Positions 4,572 through 11,086 of a stretch of DNA of 11,086 bases are shown piece after piece. The notes under the pieces were generated by a model, which was not told the origin of the DNA, searched no databases, and was given only the letters and a program-made list of their open reading frames with translations. Numbering within the stretch: position 1 is the first letter of the stretch; the number at the start of each line of letters is the position of its first letter. A program made the position numbers and the translations under genes. Source of the DNA: a virus; the UHGV virus genome UHGV-0145753; one strand, given 5' to 3'.

Positions 4572-4660
4572 AACATAATATTGATCTATCCAATCAATTA
4601 TACCCACCAGAATTGTATTGTTATCGTCTAAGATACTGAATTCCTCTGGATACTATCAAA

Positions 4661-4894
4661 ATGAGAAAACTGATTATCTGCATGGCAGGCGCTGTCATGC
4701 TTACAGGATGCGCTGGCGTAATTGAGAAACAGGAACCAGTTTGCAGCGGCACTGCAATCGTTGGCGGTCAGGAAACTACGGTTCAGATTTACGGTGTGCG
4801 TAAACAAAACAACCAGACGCAGTACCGGGCTGGATATCCTTTCAGCTGGCGCTGGGTAAGTGCGAATACATTTACCGAAACAACCTGCAAATAA
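4661..4894 (+). CDS. Small secreted lipoprotein (77 aa); position and size consistent with a Cor-like superinfection-exclusion lipoprotein
   Basis: N-terminus MRKLIICMAGAVMLTGCAG has a hydrophobic signal sequence followed by an L-T-G-C lipobox. The gene sits between J and the side tail fibre with its own AT-rich upstream region and a downstream terminator (moron-like). The Cor assignment rests on context only. Confidence 0.65.
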   Translation: MRKLIICMAGAVMLTGCAGVIEKQEPVCSGTAIVGGQETTVQIYGVRKQNNQTQYRAGYPFSWRWVSANTFTETTCK

Positions 4895-4915
4895 CCCACT
4901 ACGCTTAAACATAAA

Positions 4916-4938
4916 CCTCGCTCCGGCGGGGTTTTTTT
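4916..4938 (+). terminator. Putative rho-independent terminator after the lipoprotein gene
   Basis: GC-rich imperfect hairpin (cctcgctccggcgggg) immediately followed by a run of seven T (4932-4938). Confidence 0.5.
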
Positions 4939-4954
4939 ATTGCCTGGAGAAAAT

Positions 4955-5896
4955 ATGCTTTATAACACCGGCACCATCGCCATTAATGGAAATACCGCCA
5001 CCGGGACGGGTACAAACTGGACGGCACCGGCCAGCCAGGTCCGCGCTGGCCAGACGATTATCGTGATGTCTAACCCGGTGCAGCTGTTTCAGATTTCATC
5101 CGTGAACAGCGCCACGTCAATGACGGTAACGCCTGCTGCATCACCGGCGCTGAGCGGCCAGAAGTACGGCATTCTGGTATCAGACAATATCTCGGTTGAT
5201 GGGCTGGCGCTGGCCATGTCGCAGCTTATCAAGGAGTATGACGAGAATATTGGTGCGTGGGAGACGTTCGCCACAACCTCAGCCAACCAGAACATTACCG
5301 TTACGATCAATGGCACCAGTTTATCAATCCCGGCTCTTGGGAAATTACTGCAGAAGGGGAGCAACGGAGCTTTGCCGGTTAATCAAGGTGGTACCGGCGC
5401 AACGAATGCCGCAGACGCTCGCACAAACCTTGGTTTGGGAGAAGGTTCGGTGTTACCCGTTGGTGTGCCTGTTCCGTGGCCTGCAGCCACTCCGCCAACA
5501 GGCTGGCTGAAATGCAATGGTGCGGCTTTTTCTGCTGAAGAATACCCAGAACTGGCAAAGGCTTACCCGACAAATAAATTGCCTGATTTACGTGGTGAGT
5601 TTATGCGTGGCTGGGATGATGGAAGAGGCGTTGATAGTGGCAGGGGGATTCTCACTGCGCAATCTCATGGTATGCCGTCTATTTCAGGAACGTTTAATGG
5701 TCTTTTTGCTGTTAAACAAACAAATGGTTTAGGTGGTGTTTCTGTAGCAAAAAGTACAAATACTGAAACTTTATCTACTTCATCTGGATCAGGTTCCGTG
5801 TTTGATTACACGTTTAATGTCAGCGGTTCGACTCCGGTATCACCAGAACTTCGTCCGCGTAATATTGCATTTAACTATATCGTGAGGGCCGCATAA
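4955..5896 (+). CDS. Side tail fiber protein: constant N-terminal part (to about 5430) fused to the currently expressed variable C-terminal part carrying a phage tail-collar-like domain
   Basis: GGAG Shine-Dalgarno 7 nt upstream of ATG 4955 (the ORF-track start at 4940 is a TTG). The N-terminus MLYNTGTIAINGNTATGTGTNW is fibre-like, and the C-terminal motifs (PTGWLKCNGAAFSAEEYPELAKAY, LPDLRGEFMRGWDDGRG) are typical of tail-collar domains. The left inversion site lies in-frame at 5418-5443. Confidence 0.85.
   Translation: MLYNTGTIAINGNTATGTGTNWTAPASQVRAGQTIIVMSNPVQLFQISSVNSATSMTVTPAASPALSGQKYGILVSDNISVDGLALAMSQLIKEYDENIGAWETFATTSANQNITVTINGTSLSIPALGKLLQKGSNGALPVNQGGTGATNAADARTNLGLGEGSVLPVGVPVPWPAATPPTGWLKCNGAAFSAEEYPELAKAYPTNKLPDLRGEFMRGWDDGRGVDSGRGILTAQSHGMPSISGTFNGLFAVKQTNGLGGVSVAKSTNTETLSTSSGSGSVFDYTFNVSGSTPVSPELRPRNIAFNYIVRAA
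5418..5443. repeat. Left recombination site of the invertible segment (gix/hix/pix-like), crossover dinucleotide TT at 5430-5431
   Basis: CTCGCACAAACC-TT-GGTTTGGGAGAA. Positions 5430-5444 are the exact reverse complement of 7254-7268. The half-site resembles the Hin/Gin-type consensus (TTCTC..AAACC) as I recall it. It is embedded in-frame in the tail-fibre gene (codons N-L-G-L-G-E). Confidence 0.7.
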
Positions 5897-6498
5897 TGAA
5901 TAATGCAGAATTAAATAGTGAATTGATTGCTACTGCGGCAGGGAATATTACCGTTTATAACTATGATTGTGAAACACGAGAATATATTTCCACATCAACT
6001 GAATATCTTGCTGTGGGTGTCGGTATCCCGGCATGTTCCTGTCTGGATACACCAGGTATACATAAGGCGGGTTATGCAATATGCCGCTCTGTGGATTTAA
6101 ATTCATGGGAATATGTGCCAGACCATCGAGGTGAAATTGTCTATAGCACCGAAACGGGAGATACCAAAGAAATCACAGTGCCAGGCGACTATCCCGAAAA
6201 TACAACCACTATCGCCCCGTTAACGCCATACGATAAATGGGATGGTGAGAAATGGGTGACCGATATTGAGGCACAGCATAGCGCCGCAGTAGACGCGGCA
6301 GAAGCGCATCGCCAATCGCGGATTGATGCTGCAATGGCTTCCATCAGTCTGATTCAGCTGAAATTGCAGGCCGGACGTAAACTGACGCAGGCAGAAACAA
6401 CCCGGCTTAACGCTGTGCTGGATTACATTGACGCGGTGGTGGCAACAGATACCAGCACCGCGCCGGATGTCATCTGGCCTGAACTACCGGAGGCGTAG
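5896..6498 (+). CDS. tfa: Tail fiber assembly protein (Tfa chaperone) for the currently expressed fibre variant
   Basis: Start overlaps the fibre stop (TAATG) with a GAGGG Shine-Dalgarno upstream. C-terminal motif LDYIDAVVATDTSTAPDVIWPELP is typical of the conserved Tfa C-terminus. Confidence 0.8.
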   Translation: MNNAELNSELIATAAGNITVYNYDCETREYISTSTEYLAVGVGIPACSCLDTPGIHKAGYAICRSVDLNSWEYVPDHRGEIVYSTETGDTKEITVPGDYPENTTTIAPLTPYDKWDGEKWVTDIEAQHSAAVDAAEAHRQSRIDAAMASISLIQLKLQAGRKLTQAETTRLNAVLDYIDAVVATDTSTAPDVIWPELPEA

Positions 6499-6913
6499 GC
6501 CATTCAATATCTGGAGCACTGGAAATATCGACCATTTCCAGTGCATCCAGATAATCCAGCCACAAATTATATTGTGCCAGTTCCTCACCTTTCAGACGAC
6601 CGATAGCTGCTTTACCAGGCCATTGCTTACCGTTCATGTATTCGTTGGCATGGTCAATTCTCGACTTTTTCTCTGAGTCAGCCGCAGCAAGTTGTTCTTT
6701 ATGCGTAGGTGACGGAAGATCTACCCAGCAAGGCAACCCATCATCACCAATGCCACGCATTTTACCCTCAGGAGCGTTTCCCATGAAAACCAGTGCATCT
6801 TCAGCATCTATATTGATGCCGTCTGACGGCCATGTGCCAGCAGTTAAATAATCATATTTCAGTGCCACAAGATAAAAAGCATTTTCCGTCGGGCTGAATA
6901 CATAGTCGACCAT
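6470..6913 (-). CDS. tfa: Alternative tail fiber assembly protein (Tfa-alt), in the silent orientation
   Basis: Conserved Tfa-type C-terminus (LWLDYLDALEMVDISSAPDIEWPTPP). Preferred start is the ATG at 6913, which overlaps the Sv-alt stop in a TAATG junction mirroring the + strand arrangement and has a GGGAG upstream; the ORF-track start at 6931 would add 6 aa. Its 3' end overlaps the + strand tfa convergently by 29 bp. Confidence 0.72.
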   Translation of the reverse strand: MVDYVFSPTENAFYLVALKYDYLTAGTWPSDGINIDAEDALVFMGNAPEGKMRGIGDDGLPCWVDLPSPTHKEQLAAADSEKKSRIDHANEYMNGKQWPGKAAIGRLKGEELAQYNLWLDYLDALEMVDISSAPDIEWPTPPVVQAR

Positions 6914-7268
6914 TAATATCCCACTCCCCATACTGCCACTGTTGAATTAGATTTCGTGTATGCGCAAGCGGCTTTGAATTTGACCCGGTCAACAATCGCT
7001 GCGCTAACAAAAGGGGCTCCATTAGTCGCGTAGATCACAGAATTGACCAGCGAAGGATTGATGGAAAGGCAAGCATTAGGAAAGGCAACCGGCCATGAGC
7101 CATCAACAACGACCATATTACCGTCGGTAGATTGCGGCACTGATAGCGTCTTCCACTGAAGCAATGCTGTTCGTTGTACTCCACCAATTAATACTGGAAT
7201 AGTGATGTTACCTGCACTGCTGGCTAATGCTGTCGCAGCAGGCATTTTCGCTGCTTCTCCCAAACCAA
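6913..7268 (-). CDS. Alternative tail-fibre variable C-terminal cassette (Sv-alt), promoterless and startless; it would be fused in-frame to the constant part after inversion
   Basis: The minus-strand reading frame is open from the right inversion site to a stop at 6913-6915. Across the site it encodes V-G-L-G-E, matching L-G-L-G-E at the left site in the same codon phase, so recombination at the central dinucleotide keeps the frame. The ORF-track start at 7287 is a TTG beyond the crossover. Confidence 0.62.
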
Positions 7269-7280
7269 CCTTTTTTATAA
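7255..7280. repeat. Right recombination site of the invertible segment (gix/hix/pix-like), crossover dinucleotide AA at 7267-7268
   Basis: TTCTCCCAAACC-AA-CCTTTTTTATAA. Its left half and centre are the exact reverse complement of the left site's right half and centre. It lies about 60 bp upstream of the invertase start. Confidence 0.7.
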
Positions 7281-7339
7281 CCATCAAAAATCTGGTGATG
7301 CTTCGCCGTTTCTCCTGTTTTCATAACAGGAGAAATCCC

Positions 7340-7888
7340 ATGATTTACGGTTATGCCCGAGTATCAACAAACCACCAGGACACTGAATTGCAACTAACGG
7401 CGCTCAAGTCAGCGGGTTGTGAGAAAATTTTTGAAGAGCATGCCAGCGGGAGGAAATCGAATCGGCCGGTTCTAAAACGGCTGATCGCCACTATGCAGCC
7501 GGGGGATGAACTGGTGGTCTGGAAGCTGGACAGGATAGGCCGCAACGTTCTGCATGCGCTGTTGATGTTCCAGCAGTTACAGGAAAAGGGTATCAACTTC
7601 CGCAGTATTACCGATGGCGTGGATCTCAAAACAGCCAGCGGCCGCTATAACTTTCGTAACATCCTTTCCGCAGCACAATATGAATCTGATCTTAATAGCG
7701 AACGTACCTTAGCAGGGCTGGCCGTAGCCAGGGCAAAAGGGCGAGTTGGTGGTCGCAGGCCTAAGTTCACGGATGAGCAATGGCGGGAAATGGGGGAGCG
7801 GATGGCAACCGGTGAATCACGACAAAGCGTATCAAAAACGTATGGAGTAGGGCTCTCAACTCTGTATAAAAAGTTTCCAGCTAGCTGA
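7340..7888 (+). CDS. Site-specific DNA invertase, serine recombinase of the Hin/Gin/Cin/Pin family
   Basis: AGGAGA Shine-Dalgarno 7 nt upstream of ATG 7340. N-terminus MIYGYARVSTNHQDTELQ has the catalytic Ser at position 9 (Gin: MLIGYVRVSTNDQNTDLQ) and the C-terminal helix-turn-helix ends GLSTLYKKFPAS (Gin: ALSTLYKKHPAK). About 182 aa; the upstream in-frame extension in the ORF track (from 7202) overlaps the inversion site and is not used. Confidence 0.93.
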   Translation: MIYGYARVSTNHQDTELQLTALKSAGCEKIFEEHASGRKSNRPVLKRLIATMQPGDELVVWKLDRIGRNVLHALLMFQQLQEKGINFRSITDGVDLKTASGRYNFRNILSAAQYESDLNSERTLAGLAVARAKGRVGGRRPKFTDEQWREMGERMATGESRQSVSKTYGVGLSTLYKKFPAS

Positions 7889-7909
7889 TAACGGGAAAGA
7901 AACAGAGAA

Positions 7910-7950
7910 GGGCACAAATATTGTGTACTTTAATGTGCCCTTTAATTTAT
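7910..7950 (+). terminator. Putative terminator hairpin after the invertase gene
   Basis: Perfect 7-bp stem GGGCACA (7910-7916) and TGTGCCC (7934-7940) followed by a T-rich tract (tttaatttatt). The loop is long (17 nt) and contains a TGTGTAC motif, so this could instead be a protein-binding site. Confidence 0.4.
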
Positions 7951-8113
7951 TGATTGGTGGTTGAATTGTCCGTAACTTTTTGATTTAAGTGCAAATTTCT
8001 AATAAATTAGAACACTTTCTTAAATTGTCATTTGGCATATTACGAACAATTCCGCGTAAAAACGTTCTGTTACGCTAAACCCTTATCCAGCAGGCTTTCA
8101 AGGATGTAAACCA

Positions 8114-8136
8114 TAACACTCTGCGAACTAGTGTTA
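8114..8136. repeat. Inverted repeat TAACACT-N9-AGTGTTA; candidate att core-type site pair or operator
   Basis: Perfect 7-bp arms with a 9-bp spacer, inside the AT-rich intergenic region between invertase and integrase and about 30 bp upstream of the TGTGTAC repeats. Confidence 0.3.
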
Positions 8137-8164
8137 CATTGCGTGTAGCTTTGAGTGGGCAACT

Positions 8165-8207
8165 TTGTGTACACTTTTGTGTACCCAAAAACAAAAATGT
8201 GTACCCA
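8165..8207 (+). repeat. Three direct copies of a TGTGTAC(C) motif just upstream of the integrase start; candidate integrase arm-type or regulator binding sites
   Basis: TGTGTAC at 8166-8172 (within the palindrome GTGTACAC), 8178-8184 and 8198-8204. The last two are TGTGTACCCA 10-mers spaced 20 bp apart. A fourth TGTGTAC lies at 7922-7928 in the hairpin loop after the invertase. Confidence 0.45.
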
Positions 8208-8211
8208 TTCA

Positions 8212-9405
8212 ATGATCACCGACACAAAGCTCAGGAAGGCGCTCGGCAAGAAAAGAGATGATATCGAGATTATTTCTGATTCGCACGGGCTCAACGCCAG
8301 AATCAGCCAGGCCGGAAAAATATCATTTTTCTATCGGTATCGCTGGGCCGGTAAAGCGGTAAAACTCAATGTTGGTGATTATCCTGCAATGAGTATCACC
8401 CAGGCAAGAGAGCGTCGCCAACAATTCAGAAACTGGTTAACTGAGGGACTGGATCCGCGAGAGCAGGTGAAGCTGGATAAGCAGACCCGACAGGAAGCGA
8501 TGTCCGTTGCCGAAGCGTTCAATTACTGGATTGAAAGGCACTGTATCGCTAACGGGCTAGTTAAAGTCGATTACTATCGCCAGGTGTTTGAGAAACATAT
8601 CGCCGAACCGATGAAGAATGTCAAAGTCGATAACACAGCGAAAATGCACTGGATCAACGTCTTCGATTCTATAGAAAGCAGGGTGATGGCTCATTACATG
8701 CTTTCGCTGTGCAAACGGGCGTTTAGGTTCTGCGTTAACAGAAGTGTGATCGCCTCAAACCCACTCGAGGGATTACTGCCATCTGATGTCGGGCAAAAGC
8801 CTAAAAAGAGAACTCGCAGGATGGACGATGACGATCTGCGCAAAATCTATCAGTGGTTGAAAAGCCATATGTCGATAGAGTCCGTTTTCCTGGTGAAATT
8901 TATTATGCTTACCGGATGCCGTACGGCTGAGATTCGACTTAGTGAGAGATCATGGTTTCGATTGGATGATAATGAGTGGGTCGTGCCTGCGGGCAGTTAT
9001 AAAACTCGGGTACATATTAGAAGGGGGCTCTCAGACGCCGCCGTTAACTTGGTCAGAAATCACCTCAAGAAAATAAACACCAATCACCTGGTGACTTCAC
9101 AACGTAAAATTGATGGCGGGATCAAAGATTCGCCCGTTCATTCACCTGTGGCATCCAATTACGCCCGTTCTATTTGGAATGGAACAGGTATGGCAGAGTG
9201 GTCGCTTCATGATATGAGGCGGACGATAGCCACAAATCTCTCTGAGTTAGGTTGCCCGCCGCACGTAATTGAAAAGCTACTTGGTCATCAGATGGTCGGT
9301 GTAATGGCTCACTACAATCTGCACGACTACATCGATGACCAAAAACACTGGCTCCACGTTTGGCAGAGCCATCTTGAAAGTATCATTGGTGAGCCATTCA
9401 GTTAA
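8212..9405 (+). CDS. int: Tyrosine site-specific integrase, P4-type (N-terminal arm-binding domain plus C-terminal catalytic domain)
   Basis: N-terminus [17 protein letters not shown]...[23 protein letters not shown]...[18 protein letters not shown] fits the P4-integrase arm-binding pattern. The C-terminus has the catalytic signature ([19 protein letters not shown]...AHY). Start chosen at ATG 8212; the ORF track begins at an upstream GTG (8155) that would put the repeats inside the coding sequence. No strong Shine-Dalgarno at either. Confidence 0.9.
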
Positions 9406-9598
9406 TTGGCTGTTTCACACCTTCCCACTCTTTGACTGACTCCGACTTCCAGCGGTTTGGGTTACCAGGAAAATCAGGAGCAGGGAACGGCTTCGCAAAA
9501 CCCCGCGGCATAGTTTCTGTGCTTTGCCATGACCAAAGGGTTTTACGTGAGATTTTGTATCGACTGGTCAGGTCTGACGTCAGCAAAATATCATCCAT
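9398..9598 (-). CDS. AlpA/Xis-like small helix-turn-helix protein (putative excisionase or recombination directionality factor, or transcriptional regulator)
   Basis: 66 aa with GGAG Shine-Dalgarno 9 nt upstream. The pattern ...[11 protein letters not shown]...FPAP..........W....VKEW resembles AlpA (..RATIYDWL..ATFPKK......W.EAEIDEWL). It is convergent with int and overlaps its 3' end by 8 bp. Confidence 0.55.
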
Positions 9599-9609
9599 CG
9601 TTTTTCTCC

Positions 9610-9630
9610 AATGGCCCGTACTGGGCCATT
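9610..9630. promoter_or_regulatory. Perfect palindrome AATGGCCC-N5-GGGCCATT just upstream of the AlpA-like gene; candidate operator or mRNA hairpin
   Basis: 8-bp arms with a 5-nt spacer in the 45-bp gap between the hypothetical gene ending at 9644 and the AlpA-like start at 9598. It is not followed by a U-run on the coding (minus) strand. Confidence 0.35.
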
Positions 9631-9643
9631 TATAAAAGTAATA

Positions 9644-9886
9644 TCAACTCACCTGACCCGGCAGCGCTCGCAATCTGCGCATGCCTGTCATCGCCGTGGC
9701 CACGTAACTCGCCTTGCGGTTCACTACCTCCACCCAGACCTTCACACCTTCAACTCTCACCGTGTACGTTTCCTTCATCTTGCTGCGTCCGTAGTCGCCG
9801 TAGCGTTCGTGATGAGTGGCCAGCGCGATGTCGCATGCCTGACGCGCTATCGGGGATTGCTGATTGCCGCGGTTAATCAGTTTCAT
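9644..9886 (-). CDS. Hypothetical protein, 80 aa
   Basis: The ATG at 9886 overlaps the stop of the upstream gene (ATGA), indicating translational coupling within a minus-strand operon. No recognisable motifs. Confidence 0.45.
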   Translation of the reverse strand: MKLINRGNQQSPIARQACDIALATHHERYGDYGRSKMKETYTVRVEGVKVWVEVVNRKASYVATAMTGMRRLRALPGQVS

Positions 9887-10077
9887 GCTTCACCGCCATC
9901 TGGGTTGGATGATTGACGGAAAATTGCTCGGGACGGCGACCAATCGCAATATGTATCAGTTTCGGTATGCCCGAAAATTGTCTTACAGCGGCGGATATGG
10001 GCGCAGTCGCCGCAAGTCTTACCCTTCGGGAGTTTCATTTTGTCGGGGTCTGCCGGGTTATAATTCAGCTCAGTCAT
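9883..10077 (-). CDS. Hypothetical small Cys-containing protein, 65 aa (possible zinc-binding)
   Basis: Preferred start is the ATG at 10077, with GGAGG 8 nt upstream, overlapping the stop of the upstream gene (ATGACTGA); the ORF track extends it to 10221 in a region that overlaps that gene. Contains C-x2-C-x5-C-x12-C (CGDCAHIRRC...YC). Confidence 0.45.
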   Translation of the reverse strand: MTELNYNPADPDKMKLPKGKTCGDCAHIRRCKTIFGHTETDTYCDWSPSRAIFRQSSNPDGGEA

Positions 10078-10414
10078 TCCAGGCCTCCAGCTCGTTCTGA
10101 ATTTCCTCGTCGATCTCGTCATTGGTGGCATCATGATTGAGATATGTGAGAGCTTCTTTCCGATACTGTGCGCGGCGTTCGCTGTACCATGCTGAAAACT
10201 CAGGTGACCAGCCTCGACCATTACCCTGAAAATCTACAAGAGCGTTGTCCTCTGCCATGCGCTCAACCATGCAGTCGGCAGTTGTCAGGGCGCACTCACG
10301 GATATACCGGCGTAGATCCCGCTTGCGCCAGTACGGGCTATATTTCGAGTCGCAACGACCTTTAAATTCGACGGCCCAGCGACGGATGCAACGTGCATTT
10401 AATGATTTGCTCAT
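10070..10414 (-). CDS. Hypothetical protein, 114 aa, with an acidic C-terminus
   Basis: ORF in the same minus-strand operon, with its stop overlapping the next start. A GC-rich hairpin lies just upstream of its start. No recognisable family. Confidence 0.5.
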   Translation of the reverse strand: MSKSLNARCIRRWAVEFKGRCDSKYSPYWRKRDLRRYIRECALTTADCMVERMAEDNALVDFQGNGRGWSPEFSAWYSERRAQYRKEALTYLNHDATNDEIDEEIQNELEAWND

Positions 10415-10421
10415 CTCGTTA

Positions 10422-10443
10422 CCGGGAGGGCGAACCCTCCCGC
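10422..10443. promoter_or_regulatory. GC-rich hairpin CGGGAGGG-cgaa-CCCTCCCG in a 34-bp intergenic gap
   Basis: Perfect 8-bp stem with a 4-nt loop between the partial upstream ORF (stop 10449-10451) and the start at 10414. No U-run on either strand, so it is not a classical terminator. Confidence 0.35.
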
Positions 10444-10448
10444 CTCCC

Positions 10449-11086
10449 TCAGCCCACGTATTCCGGTTTCATATCTGCCAGGGTAATGCTGAACTTATCG
10501 TGCAGCTCGTCGCCCAGATGACGTTTCGCCGTTGCCAGAACTCGCTCAACTTCCCCGAAACGCGCTGCTGCATCCGGTTCGTCCGGAGACGGTAGGGAGT
10601 TGATCGCGGCCTCAACCTTGTTACGTGAATCAACCAGGTAATAGCGTTTTACTGCTTTGTTCTTCAGTTCGGTGAACAGGGCTGAACCCAGTGTGGCCTT
10701 CGCACTTTCGATATCAGCGCGTAGTGCTTTGGCGCTATCAACATCCTGTGCGGCATCGATGCGTTCGCGGAAACCATCTGCCAGTGAGTCGATGTTTCCT
10801 GATTTTTCCTGCTTGCTCTGCGTGGTTGTTATGGTGTCACCTGAAATTTCAGACAGGCTAACGTGTTGCGCCGGAGCAGGGTTAACTTCTCGCTCTTCAC
10901 GGCGATCATCCAGTTCATCAGGGGTATACACGCCGAGAATTACATCCGGGCAGAACAGTCTCGCCCAACGTTTCACGGCGAGATAAGCGAGCTGCTGGCG
11001 AGGGTCGTCAGCCCAAAGCGTTGAATTACGAGTCCTGGCCTGTGCCAGTAGCAGGTCAAGTTCCCTCGGTTGATCTTCACCTTTCA
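10449..11086 (-). CDS. Hypothetical protein, 5'-partial (reading frame open to the window end)
   Basis: The minus-strand frame has no stop from 11086 down to the stop at 10449-10451. The ORF-track start at 10976 is a GTG and the frame continues upstream (...LWADDPRQQLAYLA), so the gene begins beyond the window. Charged, Ala-rich, helical-looking sequence; function not recognised. Confidence 0.5.
   Translation of the reverse strand, partial: KGEDQPRELDLLLAQARTRNSTLWADDPRQQLAYLAVKRWARLFCPDVILGVYTPDELDDRREEREVNPAPAQHVSLSEISGDTITTTQSKQEKSGNIDSLADGFRERIDAAQDVDSAKALRADIESAKATLGSALFTELKNKAVKRYYLVDSRNKVEAAINSLPSPDEPDAAARFGEVERVLATAKRHLGDELHDKFSITLADMKPEYVG

Follow-up and report, generated by a model that had tools for sequence, protein, structure and literature searches.

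The final part of the 11,086-nucleotide stretch of virus genome UHGV-0145753 analysed here (the window) carries five consecutive minus-strand genes that converge on an integrase gene, and the question raised by this locus is whether they form an undescribed operon, as the initial annotation had suspected, or the end of a known one. We identified the genes of the block and determined their synteny, their mosaic boundaries and the constraint on their coding sequences (Table 1). Very probably, this is the early leftward operon (pL type) of a lambdoid temperate phage of the phi80 kind, seen at its promoter-distal end; the host of the phage is probably Citrobacter or a close relative. The arrangement is ordinary and already catalogued, being the standard end of an early-left operon of the phi80/Gifsy type, and the flagged "unassigned operon" has little weight as a discovery.

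Table 1. Features of the leftward block and of the adjoining integration module in the window
Feature	Position	Strand	Description
recT, 3' part	10449..11086	-	212 codons; frame open to the window end
recT–g114 intercistronic hairpin	10423..10442	-	CGGGAGGG-TTCG-CCCTCCCG; directly 3' of the recT stop
g114	10070..10414	-	114 aa; helical accessory protein; phrog_6675
g64	9883..10077	-	64 aa; Cys/His-rich accessory protein; phrog_10154; start overlaps the g114 stop
g80	9644..9886	-	80 aa; DUF4060 protein; start overlaps the g64 stop
Pre-xis hairpin	9610..9630	-	AATGGCCC-AGTAC-GGGCCATT; in the 45-nt spacer, 5' of the xis Shine-Dalgarno sequence
xis	9398..9598	-	66 aa; phi80-type excisionase (recombination directionality factor), assigned by similarity
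int	8212..9405	+	phi80 tyrosine integrase; convergent with xis
Intrinsic-terminator-like hairpin and T-run	9339..9371	-	inside the int 3' end, on the opposite strand
phi80 attP core	8012..8028		ACACTTTCTTAAATTGT; upstream of int

Gene layout, identities and coding constraint

All five minus-strand genes are present as open reading frames, recT being the partial one, just as the initial annotation had claimed, and all of them are under purifying selection, with dN/dS values of 0.03–0.30 against orthologues (recT 0.04–0.10, g114 0.06–0.14, g64 0.20–0.30, g80 about 0.10, and xis 0.03). The overlapping stop/start junctions that were thought to link the whole series are found at two of the four boundaries, where g114 and g64 overlap by 8 nt (ATGACTGA) and g64 and g80 by 4 nt (ATGA), whereas recT is separated from g114 by 34 nt, and g80 from xis by 45 nt. 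Each of these spacers contains a hairpin, and the second one additionally holds a separate Shine-Dalgarno sequence for xis (GGAG). The 3' ends of xis and int do overlap as described, sharing 8 nt (9398–9405). A promoter scan found no sigma-70-like promoter inside the block on the minus strand, and no Rfam RNA family matched there. The gene order in the window is tail fibre, pin, attP, int, xis, DUF4060, cargo, and recT.

The partial gene, which continues past the window end, encodes a single-strand annealing protein of the RecT family, and this protein has a long extension at its C terminus. Its product matches Pfam PF03837 with 52.7 bits (cut-off 24, E=5.1e-14, profile positions 123–196 of 198), as well as phrog_561 (E=5.2e-84), and is 84–97% identical to full-length RecT proteins of 361–363 aa, which follow RecE in the relatives; beyond recT, the gene order of the relatives goes on with recE, ydaE, and repressor genes. 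The RecE–RecT module is here of the Gifsy/Rac type, taking the place of the Exo/Bet of phi80. The hairpin located 3' of recT has a predicted fold of -21.2 kcal/mol. Of 70 distinct recT 3' flanks, 65 contain the arrangement GGGAGGG-loop-CCTCCC, and at least 19 different sequences are found in the loop. In relatives without cargo the DUF4060 gene comes directly after this hairpin, which marks the upstream edge of a variable cargo slot.

The product of g80 aligns with PF13269 over its residues 3–77, corresponding to profile positions 1–74 of 74 (120.3 bits, cut-off 21, E=3.9e-35); beyond DUF4060, single-sequence and profile searches of Pfam, NCBIfam, PADLOC, and PDB sequences returned nothing, and a literature search gave no mention of DUF4060. 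The protein is basic, with a pI of 10.3, and may be a small nucleic-acid-binding protein. Its gene is a fixed member of the operon end, as the conserved last gene directly before xis, and all 78 informative loci from IMG/VR that have a close RecT contain it; carriers of DUF4060 include phi80 (gp33), Gifsy-1 (STM2634), Gifsy-2, HK225, mEp237, SPN3UB, and SEN34. Strict linkage of DUF4060 to RecT was rejected, since the family is found behind Exo/Bet and Rad52-type modules too. An identity of g80 with RcbA (YdaC, DUF1187) was likewise rejected, with no BLASTP alignment at E<=100 and nothing found by the family HMM among the Rac ORFs.

The last gene of the block, initially called AlpA/Xis-like, encodes a phi80-type excisionase, judging by similarity and by adjacency to its cognate integrase. 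Its product is 81% identical to phi80 Xis and matches the phrog_1553 excisionase family (E=1e-32), and the NCBIfam model Xis_Gifsy_1 gives a weak match. The AlpA half of that description had to be dropped, as there is no match to Pfam AlpA or related families; nothing in Pfam was found at E<=0.1 except a sub-threshold hit to Xre-MbcA-ParS_M (13 bits vs. 27.8). The phi80-type xis is missing from the annotation of at least one RefSeq genome. The hairpin preceding xis has a predicted fold of -16.3 kcal/mol (z = -2.4), and in the alignment other xis types are preceded at the same place by a hairpin of different sequence. Int, with the Pfam domains Arm-DNA-bind_3 and Phage_integrase, has 395 of 397 residues (99%) in common with phi80 Int. 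Within the 3' end of int, a terminator scan independently returned TGGCTCTGCCAAACGTGGAGCCA followed by GTGTTTTTGG, a site corresponding to what the phi80 record (NC_021190.1) calls a "putative leftward transcription terminator", and this putative terminator would end the leftward operon. The attP core is identical to that annotated in the same phi80 record, which also annotates the int promoter and the leftward terminator, and the published phi80 attB has the same core as attP (PMC13449921). The homology to the E. coli KL53 prophage starts at window position 8009, and the window shows the attP arrangement of an unintegrated element.

Comparison with known lambdoid operons

In phi80 (Lula, NC_021190.1) the genes are arranged as pinL, attP, int, convergent xis, gp33 (DUF4060), a damL pseudogene, gp35, exo, rec(bet), and gamL. 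Gene order, orientations, the attP core, and the leftward terminator inside int are all alike in phi80 and in the window, and the segment 7246–9896, which comprises the pin invertase, attP, int, xis, and DUF4060, is 93% identical to phi80 at the nucleotide level, with the match stopping at the start codon of g80. Upstream of DUF4060 both have a variable slot, filled by gp35 and the dam pseudogene in phi80 and by g114 and g64 in the window, and the recombination module is Exo/Bet/GamL in the former, whereas it is of the RecE/RecT type in the latter. The Salmonella prophages Gifsy-1 and Gifsy-2 are ordered as recE, recT, STM2634 (DUF4060), STM2635 (xis), and convergent int. They share with the window a long RecT, followed by DUF4060 and by an excisionase gene that is convergent with int and overlaps it, but have no cargo between recT and DUF4060 and differ in Xis/Int specificity. 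Gifsy DUF4060 is 65% identical to g80, and the DNA match is limited to the end of recT, at about 70% identity. In E. coli KL53 the whole block is present at 86% identity, downstream of RecE.

The Rac prophage (recE, recT, ralR (Lar), rcbA, xisR, intR, with the RalA antisense sRNA) resembles the window in that a RecET module is followed by two small genes, one of them coding for a Cys-rich protein of 64 aa, and then by xis. However, neither g64 and RalR nor g80 and RcbA are homologous, the int gene of Rac is co-oriented with xis rather than convergent, and Rac RecT, with 269 aa, has no counterpart of the C-terminal extension. Small genes likewise lie between the recombination genes and xis in the exo–xis region of lambda (orf60a, orf63, orf61, ea22, ea8.5), with no sequence relationship to the g114, g64, and g80 family HMMs (best E about 0.6–3). 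These early lambda genes are non-essential, transcribed from pL, and of poorly known function, and are reported to affect lysogenisation as well as prophage induction (PMC3824215, PMC8614690). In KplE1, HK620, and Sf6, int has its own att-side promoter and is uncoupled from the RDF gene, which is carried on the lytic transcript (PMC2951348). The Int and RDF families of that module (IntS/TorI) differ from those of the window, and its attB lies in a tRNA gene, whereas attB of the phi80-type module is in the 3' end of yciI.

RecT, DUF4060, Xis, and Int follow one another in an order shared with phi80, Gifsy-1/2, HK225, and mEp237, and the block as a whole is neither unassigned nor unusual. The hallmarks of a lambdoid early-left (pL) operon, namely recombination genes, an end at xis next to int and attP, and a location between the tail-fibre and immunity regions, are present when the window is read together with its relatives, and the proposal of one leftward operon that ends in an excisionase gene convergent with the integrase gene is supported. 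The element is lambdoid, and the earlier comparison with P2/P4-like elements was misplaced. Homology to standard early-left functions in the same position, named beforehand as the outcome that would speak against novelty, was found for part of the block, e.g., Int–Xis–DUF4060, which is phi80 DNA. In turn, the statement that the four upstream products belong to no recognisable family holds for g114 and g64, which match only PHROGs of unknown function, and not for RecT and DUF4060, which were identified.

Transcription would enter the block from upstream, beyond the window, and proceed through recT and the conserved intercistronic hairpin. Next would come g114, g64, and g80, translationally coupled via their overlapping stop/start codons, and then the second hairpin and xis, with a stop at the terminator that lies antisense to the 3' part of int. 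The latter gene would be expressed separately, from its own promoter beside attP, as in an uncoupled integration module of the phi80/KplE1 type. Since pL, recE, and the remainder of the operon lie outside the window, it is the relatives and the lack of internal promoters that point to co-transcription.

The cargo slot and its two small genes

Of the 78 informative loci from IMG/VR that have a close RecT, 75 show DUF4060 at about 42 nt behind recT, and inserts are found in only three, namely g114 with g64, g114 with ASCH, or Dam. In relatives the slot can also hold, among other cargo, DUF7740, an ASCH protein, or the genes for a D12 adenine methyltransferase or a dATP/dGTP pyrophosphohydrolase. 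The two genes of the window, g114 and g64, are accessory cassettes of a hypervariable slot; they are independent of each other, have no promoter, and are translationally coupled. The suggested synteny comparison separates these two, as variable cargo, from RecT, DUF4060, Xis, and Int, the order of which is conserved, and the idea of an accessory hotspot survives for g114 and g64 but not for RecT, DUF4060, or Xis. An obligate partnership of g114 and g64 was rejected, as g114 occurs with ASCH or the pyrophosphohydrolase instead; g114 is missing from 43 of 80 IMG/VR loci with g64, and likewise from nearly all species genomes that have g64.

The N-terminal third of g114 is basic (+9), and its C terminus is acidic (...EIDEEIQNELEAWND). 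An exhaustive HMMER search of 1.84 billion representatives returned only 44 proteins and no connection to any named family; elsewhere, the gene is located in early-left operons of the DUF2303/YfdQ type and in a Mu-like early region. Single-sequence and profile searches with g114 and g64 gave no match in Pfam, NCBIfam, PADLOC, or the sequences of the PDB, nor was any PDB fold matched, and neither these two nor g80 are listed in the supplements of two phage accessory-gene screens. An identification of the three with named lambdoid early-left functions was rejected after their family HMMs had been run (hmmsearch --max) against all six-frame ORFs of the lambda, P22, and Rac early-left regions, with a best E of 0.6–2; the names covered were Gam, Kil, CIII, Ea10, Ral, Ea8.5, Ea22, orf60a/61/63, Abc1/2, EaA-I, RacC, and KilR. 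Both g114 and g64 may be expressed early and act on host or nucleic-acid targets, in host take-over or counter-defence, rather than in recombination. It is solely the company kept by these genes that suggests counter-defence.

The product of g64 has a near-invariant core of roughly 50 residues (LNYDPxDPDKMxLPxGxTCGDCxHIRRCKAIFGHTETDTYCDWSPSR), in which all of 121 sequences share the motif C22-x2-C25-x5-C31-x12-C44 without variation and which also holds two His. Its conservation spans enterobacterial, Bordetella, Desulfovibrio, and Sphingobium elements. The core is about 60–87% identical between phages of Enterobacteriaceae, Burkholderiales, Xanthomonadales, and Pseudomonas and a Desulfovibrio MAG, and 53–59% identical in the most distant matches (Sphingobium, Dehalococcoidia), with synonymous sites saturated despite this identity of the protein core. 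Its neighbours elsewhere, in phages of several proteobacterial classes, are replication genes, DNA methyltransferases, and Lar-like genes, with no conserved partner gene among them, and no relative was detectable among solved folds. Judging from the sequence, the four Cys may bind a metal or an Fe-S cluster. The spacing C-x2-C-x5-C is used by the [4Fe-4S] proteins FNR, WhiB-like, EndoIII, and AddB/Cas4, for g64 a functional analogy only, and the 121 family members gave no match to Whib or any other Pfam family. We can speculate, as a possible although unlikely reading, that g64 represents an uncharacterised class of phage mini metalloproteins, either a WhiB-like counterpart in proteobacteria or a new counter-defence factor. 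Constraint of this kind would be in keeping with an Fe-S or Zn protein which, at an early stage of infection, docks onto host machinery that is universally conserved.

Other roles considered for the small genes

The location of g114, g64, and g80 directly downstream of recT, in one operon, could also mean that they encode accessory factors of RecET, such as a Gam/Abc2-like inhibitor of RecBCD protecting linear DNA, or a mediator of RecT. The presence of DUF4060 after recT in every one of the 78 informative loci would agree with such a role, as would the helical character and acidic C-terminal tail of g114, and we know of no Gam analogue in Rac-type RecET phages. We nevertheless consider this role improbable, as 75 of the 78 close RecT loci have neither g114 nor g64, and both also lie in early regions that have no RecT at all (DUF2303-type, replication-proximal, and Mu-like ones). 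DUF4060, for its part, is also located behind Exo/Bet in phi80, whose own gamL lies upstream, and behind a Rad52-type module that already holds Abc2, and the family HMMs match no early-left ORF of lambda, P22, or Rac, Gam, Abc1, and Abc2 included.

Integrase-proximal regions of prophages often hold defence-type cargo, and this, together with the hypervariability of the slot, would favour defence or superinfection-exclusion genes (morons) guarding the lysogen against other phages. Such a function is highly improbable for the small genes. The defence-system search that had been recommended was negative, with no PADLOC-DB 2.0 model matched by any of the six proteins (E<=0.01); the small genes encode short proteins that lack enzymatic domains, and the relatives carry cargo (orphan Dam, ASCH, dNTP pyrophosphohydrolase) of an offensive or epigenetic rather than a defensive kind. 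Moreover, no expression of the genes would be expected in the lysogen, because they have no internal promoter and are translationally coupled inside a lytic early-left operon. A narrower proposal concerns g64 as the small toxin of a RalR/RalA-like type I toxin–antitoxin pair, since RalR is a 64-aa, Cys-rich DNase of Rac encoded between recT and xis, and g64 has the same size, is Cys-rich, and occupies the equivalent position. Hardly any probability can be given to it, as g64 does not resemble RalR in sequence (BLASTP E = 0.06 over 31 residues) and has no Rfam match, and membership of the Lar/RalR family (PF14354) was rejected with no Pfam match for g64 or the 121 family members. On the plus strand, which would encode an antisense RNA, sites resembling promoters or terminators are no commoner than chance, and many g64 contexts have no conserved antisense region.

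With the region read as the end of an early leftward operon of a phi80-like phage, its variable slot is easy to recognise, lying between DUF4060 and the conserved recT 3' hairpin (or the recombinase gene), and could be mined across enterobacterial prophages for early accessory and counter-defence genes. Within it, g64 represents an unusually constrained family of small Cys/His proteins that merits a simple biochemical test.

Gene layout and identities

ORF analysis of the window places five successive ORFs on the minus strand of 9398–11086, with the integrase gene convergent on them. In comparisons with orthologues all five have dN/dS values of 0.03–0.30, with synonymous sites saturated in the distant comparisons, and since this indicates purifying selection, they are real genes. 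The genes g114, g64, and g80 are named here by product length in residues.

Features of the window and their coordinates
Feature	Position	Strand	Remark
Lipoprotein-like ORF	4661–4894		MRKLIICMAGAVMLTGCAG...
Tail-fibre/assembly ORF	5896–6498	+	opposed to minus-strand ORFs
Tail-fibre/assembly ORFs	6470–6931 and 6913–7287	-	opposed to plus-strand ORF
Pin-type serine invertase	~7340–7888		adjoins opposed tail-fibre/assembly ORFs
attP core	8012–8028		ACACTTTCTTAAATTGT
int (integrase)	8212..9405	+	convergent with xis
Terminator-like site	9371..9349		from scan
xis	9598..9398	-	66 aa
DUF4060–xis spacer hairpin	9610–9630		
g80	9886..9644	-	
g64	10077..9883	-	
g114	10414..10070	-	
recT 3' hairpin	10423–10442	-	
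recT 3' part	>11086..10449	-	ORF still open at window end

The partial gene encodes RecT (Pfam PF03837, 52.7 bits against a cut-off of 24; phrog_561, E=5e-84), g80 a DUF4060 protein (PF13269, 120 bits), and the last gene an excisionase (phrog_1553, E=1e-32) that has no match to Pfam AlpA, part of the AlpA/Xis-like label given to it in the initial annotation. The earlier view that the four upstream products belong to no recognized family thus survives for g114 and g64, whose sole matches are PHROG families of unknown function (phrog_6675 and phrog_10154, respectively), and fails for RecT and DUF4060. The NCBIfam naming models gave no match save a sub-threshold Xis_Gifsy_1, PADLOC defence models and PDB sequences gave none, and no Rfam family matched in the window.

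The genes had also been described as linked by overlapping junctions, which is correct for g114/g64 (8-nt overlap, ATGACTGA) and g64/g80 (ATGA); the other two junctions are spacers. The 34-nt spacer between recT and g114 contains a hairpin, CGGGAGGG-TTCG-CCCTCCCG, and the 45-nt spacer between g80 and xis another, AATGGCCC-AGTAC-GGGCCATT, followed by GGAG and ATG. The 3' ends of xis and int overlap by 8 nt, and a promoter scan found no minus-strand promoter-like site inside the block.

The recombination module is of the Gifsy/Rac type. E. coli KL53 has the same block, 86% identical, continuing upstream into full RecT, RecE, YdaE, a repressor, and replication genes, and Gifsy-1 has the order recE-recT-DUF4060 (STM2634)-xis (STM2635), with int convergent. 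The RecT subfamily of the window (361–386 aa), which some phage records name 'RecT family enterohemolysin', carries a C-terminal extension of ~140 residues outside the Pfam RecT profile (window 10449–10880, fragment residues ~68–211), whereas Rac RecT (269 aa) lacks it.

Integration module of the phi80 type

The curated phi80 record has the order pinL - attP core - int promoter - int, followed convergently by xis - gp33 (DUF4060) - damL pseudogene - gp35 - exo - rec - gamL. From pinL to gp33 its DNA is 93% identical to window 7246–9896, the match stopping at the g80 start codon; the Int proteins share 395 of 397 residues and the Xis proteins are 81% identical. With tblastn, g80 matches phi80, HK225, mEp237, Gifsy-1/2, SPN3UB, and SEN34. 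The terminator-like site coincides with a 'putative leftward transcription terminator' annotated in phi80 within the int 3' end, and the int/xis arrangement is that of KplE1, HK620, and Sf6, in which int is transcribed separately, facing the RDF gene (PMC2951348).

Homology to the integrated relative in E. coli KL53, adjoining kch, begins at 8009, in agreement with the published phi80 attB (PMC13449921), and the window therefore represents attP in the unintegrated configuration. The intact attP core separates pin and tail-fibre DNA from int, so the window derives from a phage genome, unintegrated (or circularly assembled), rather than a prophage inserted at this core. In KL53 (NZ_CP030919.1; L001 9101–9298) a phi80-type xis ORF, 98% identical to that of the window, was left without a CDS between the integrase and DUF4060 genes by the RefSeq annotation, whose pipeline missed this small gene.

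Beyond the module, window 4622–5401 is 98% identical to phi80 and holds the lipoprotein-like ORF where phi80 carries cor (superinfection exclusion). In 5896–7888, opposed tail-fibre/assembly ORFs lie beside the Pin-type invertase, which suggests that a host-range segment can be inverted here as at phi80 pinL.

The cargo slot between recT and the DUF4060 gene

Eighty IMG/VR loci with the closest RecT proteins (84–97% identical) were compared, 78 of which reach past recT. All 78 contain DUF4060. Its start lies ~42 nt past recT, immediately behind the hairpin, in 75 of them, and inserts are confined to three (g114+g64, g114 with an ASCH protein gene, and a Dam-type methyltransferase). Klebsiella relatives carry g114-like genes, a dATP/dGTP pyrophosphohydrolase, DUF7740, and unknowns in the same slot. 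DNA alignment shows that insertion starts directly after the recT hairpin, which marks the exact insertion point of the cargo genes, and that different downstream cargo genes join g114 just past a common ATGACTGAGC. This junction (window 10068–10077; L012, L089, L090) precedes unrelated genes, namely g64, an ASCH protein gene, and the gene of a 156-aa protein, and looks like a joint at which recombination has repeatedly exchanged cassettes.

The stem of the recT 3' hairpin, GGGAGGG/CCCTCCC, is nearly invariant at the equivalent site of loci L006–L085: of 70 distinct recT flanks, 65 carry it, with loops that vary in at least 19 ways. Between DUF4060 and the Shine-Dalgarno sequence of xis, unrelated xis modules (L007, L015) likewise all have a spacer hairpin, differing in sequence, which suggests a conserved RNA-level feature that controls xis expression. 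The xis-int module 3' of DUF4060 is itself exchangeable, co-oriented modules of other types being found in these two loci. DUF4060 has no fixed link to RecT, lying behind Exo/Bet in phi80 and behind a Rad52-SSB-Abc2 module in another kch-site prophage, and in every case is the last gene before xis.

The g114 family comprises 276 clusters at 90% identity, nearly all of 112–118 aa and, where named, almost all from Enterobacteriaceae; an exhaustive HMMER search gave only 44 representatives at 50% identity, the most distant matches being Hafnia and Listeria phage records (34–37% identity). The N-terminal third is basic (+9) and the C-terminus acidic and conserved (...EIDEEIQNELEAWND). Among 80 IMG/VR loci, g114 directly follows recT in 39, where the next gene is g64 (26) or ASCH (13). 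In another 33 the 3-kb flank lacks recT, and roughly half of that group are early-left operons of the DUF2303 (YfdQ) type; an ATGA overlap joins g114 to the upstream stop codon in nearly all of the 33. The gene also occurs in a Mu-like phage early region, adjoining GemA.

The g64 family (213 clusters) has an almost invariant core, LNYDPxDPDKMxLPxGxTCGDCxHIRRCKAIFGHTETDTYCDWSPSR, with C22, C25, H27, C31, H37, and C44 invariant in 121 sequences; this extreme conservation is the only mildly unusual item of the region. The C-x2-C-x5-C pattern recurs in [4Fe-4S] proteins (FNR, WhiB-like proteins, EndoIII, AddB, Cas4), which for g64 is no more than a lead. Homologues with 53–87% identity occur in Bordetella, Rhodanobacter, Castellaniella, a Burkholderiaceae MAG, a Desulfovibrio MAG, Sphingobium, and Pseudomonas phages. 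Their neighbours vary from early-left operons near xis/int to post-replication-gene regions beside cytosine/adenine methyltransferases and Lar-like genes, and are drawn from the same cargo pool (ASCH, Dam, pyrophosphohydrolase); no conserved partner gene was found among the g64 loci compared. In L094, L095, L097, L101–L103, and L004 g64 homologues often lie beside DNA cytosine or adenine methyltransferase genes and small Lar-like Cys-rich genes. These neighbours were called by eye from translated N-termini; Pfam supports just two of them, the Lar-domain gene of L003/L004 and the one near g64 in the Rhodanobacter locus (L005, on one contig with L102). Such a setting hints at a role in anti-restriction.

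Functional interpretation

Kinship of the small genes with named early-left functions was rejected: the HMMs of the g114, g64, and g80 families match no ORF of the lambda, P22, and Rac early-left regions, and neither g64 and RalR nor g80 and RcbA show similarity. Rac ralR/rcbA and the lambda exo-xis genes are positional analogues of the small genes, not homologues.

Leftward transcription from pL, beyond the window, would follow infection or induction and read through recE-recT, with the recT 3' hairpin probably acting at the RNA level in stability or processing. Next, g114, g64, and g80 would be translated by coupling and xis from its own Shine-Dalgarno sequence, behind the second hairpin; the transcript would end at the terminator inside int, and Int would be supplied from its own promoter adjoining attP.

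The proposal of an accessory hotspot applies to g114 and g64 only, the rest of the block (RecT, DUF4060, xis) being a phi80/Gifsy-type operon end. The region is an ordinary lambdoid early-left operon end whose mosaic parts are phi80 integration DNA, a Gifsy-type RecET module, and two cargo genes that are catalogued but uncharacterised. The products of these two genes, g114 and g64, are most likely accessory proteins that are expressed early and directed at the host, for which a counter-defence role may be proposed through guilt by association only.
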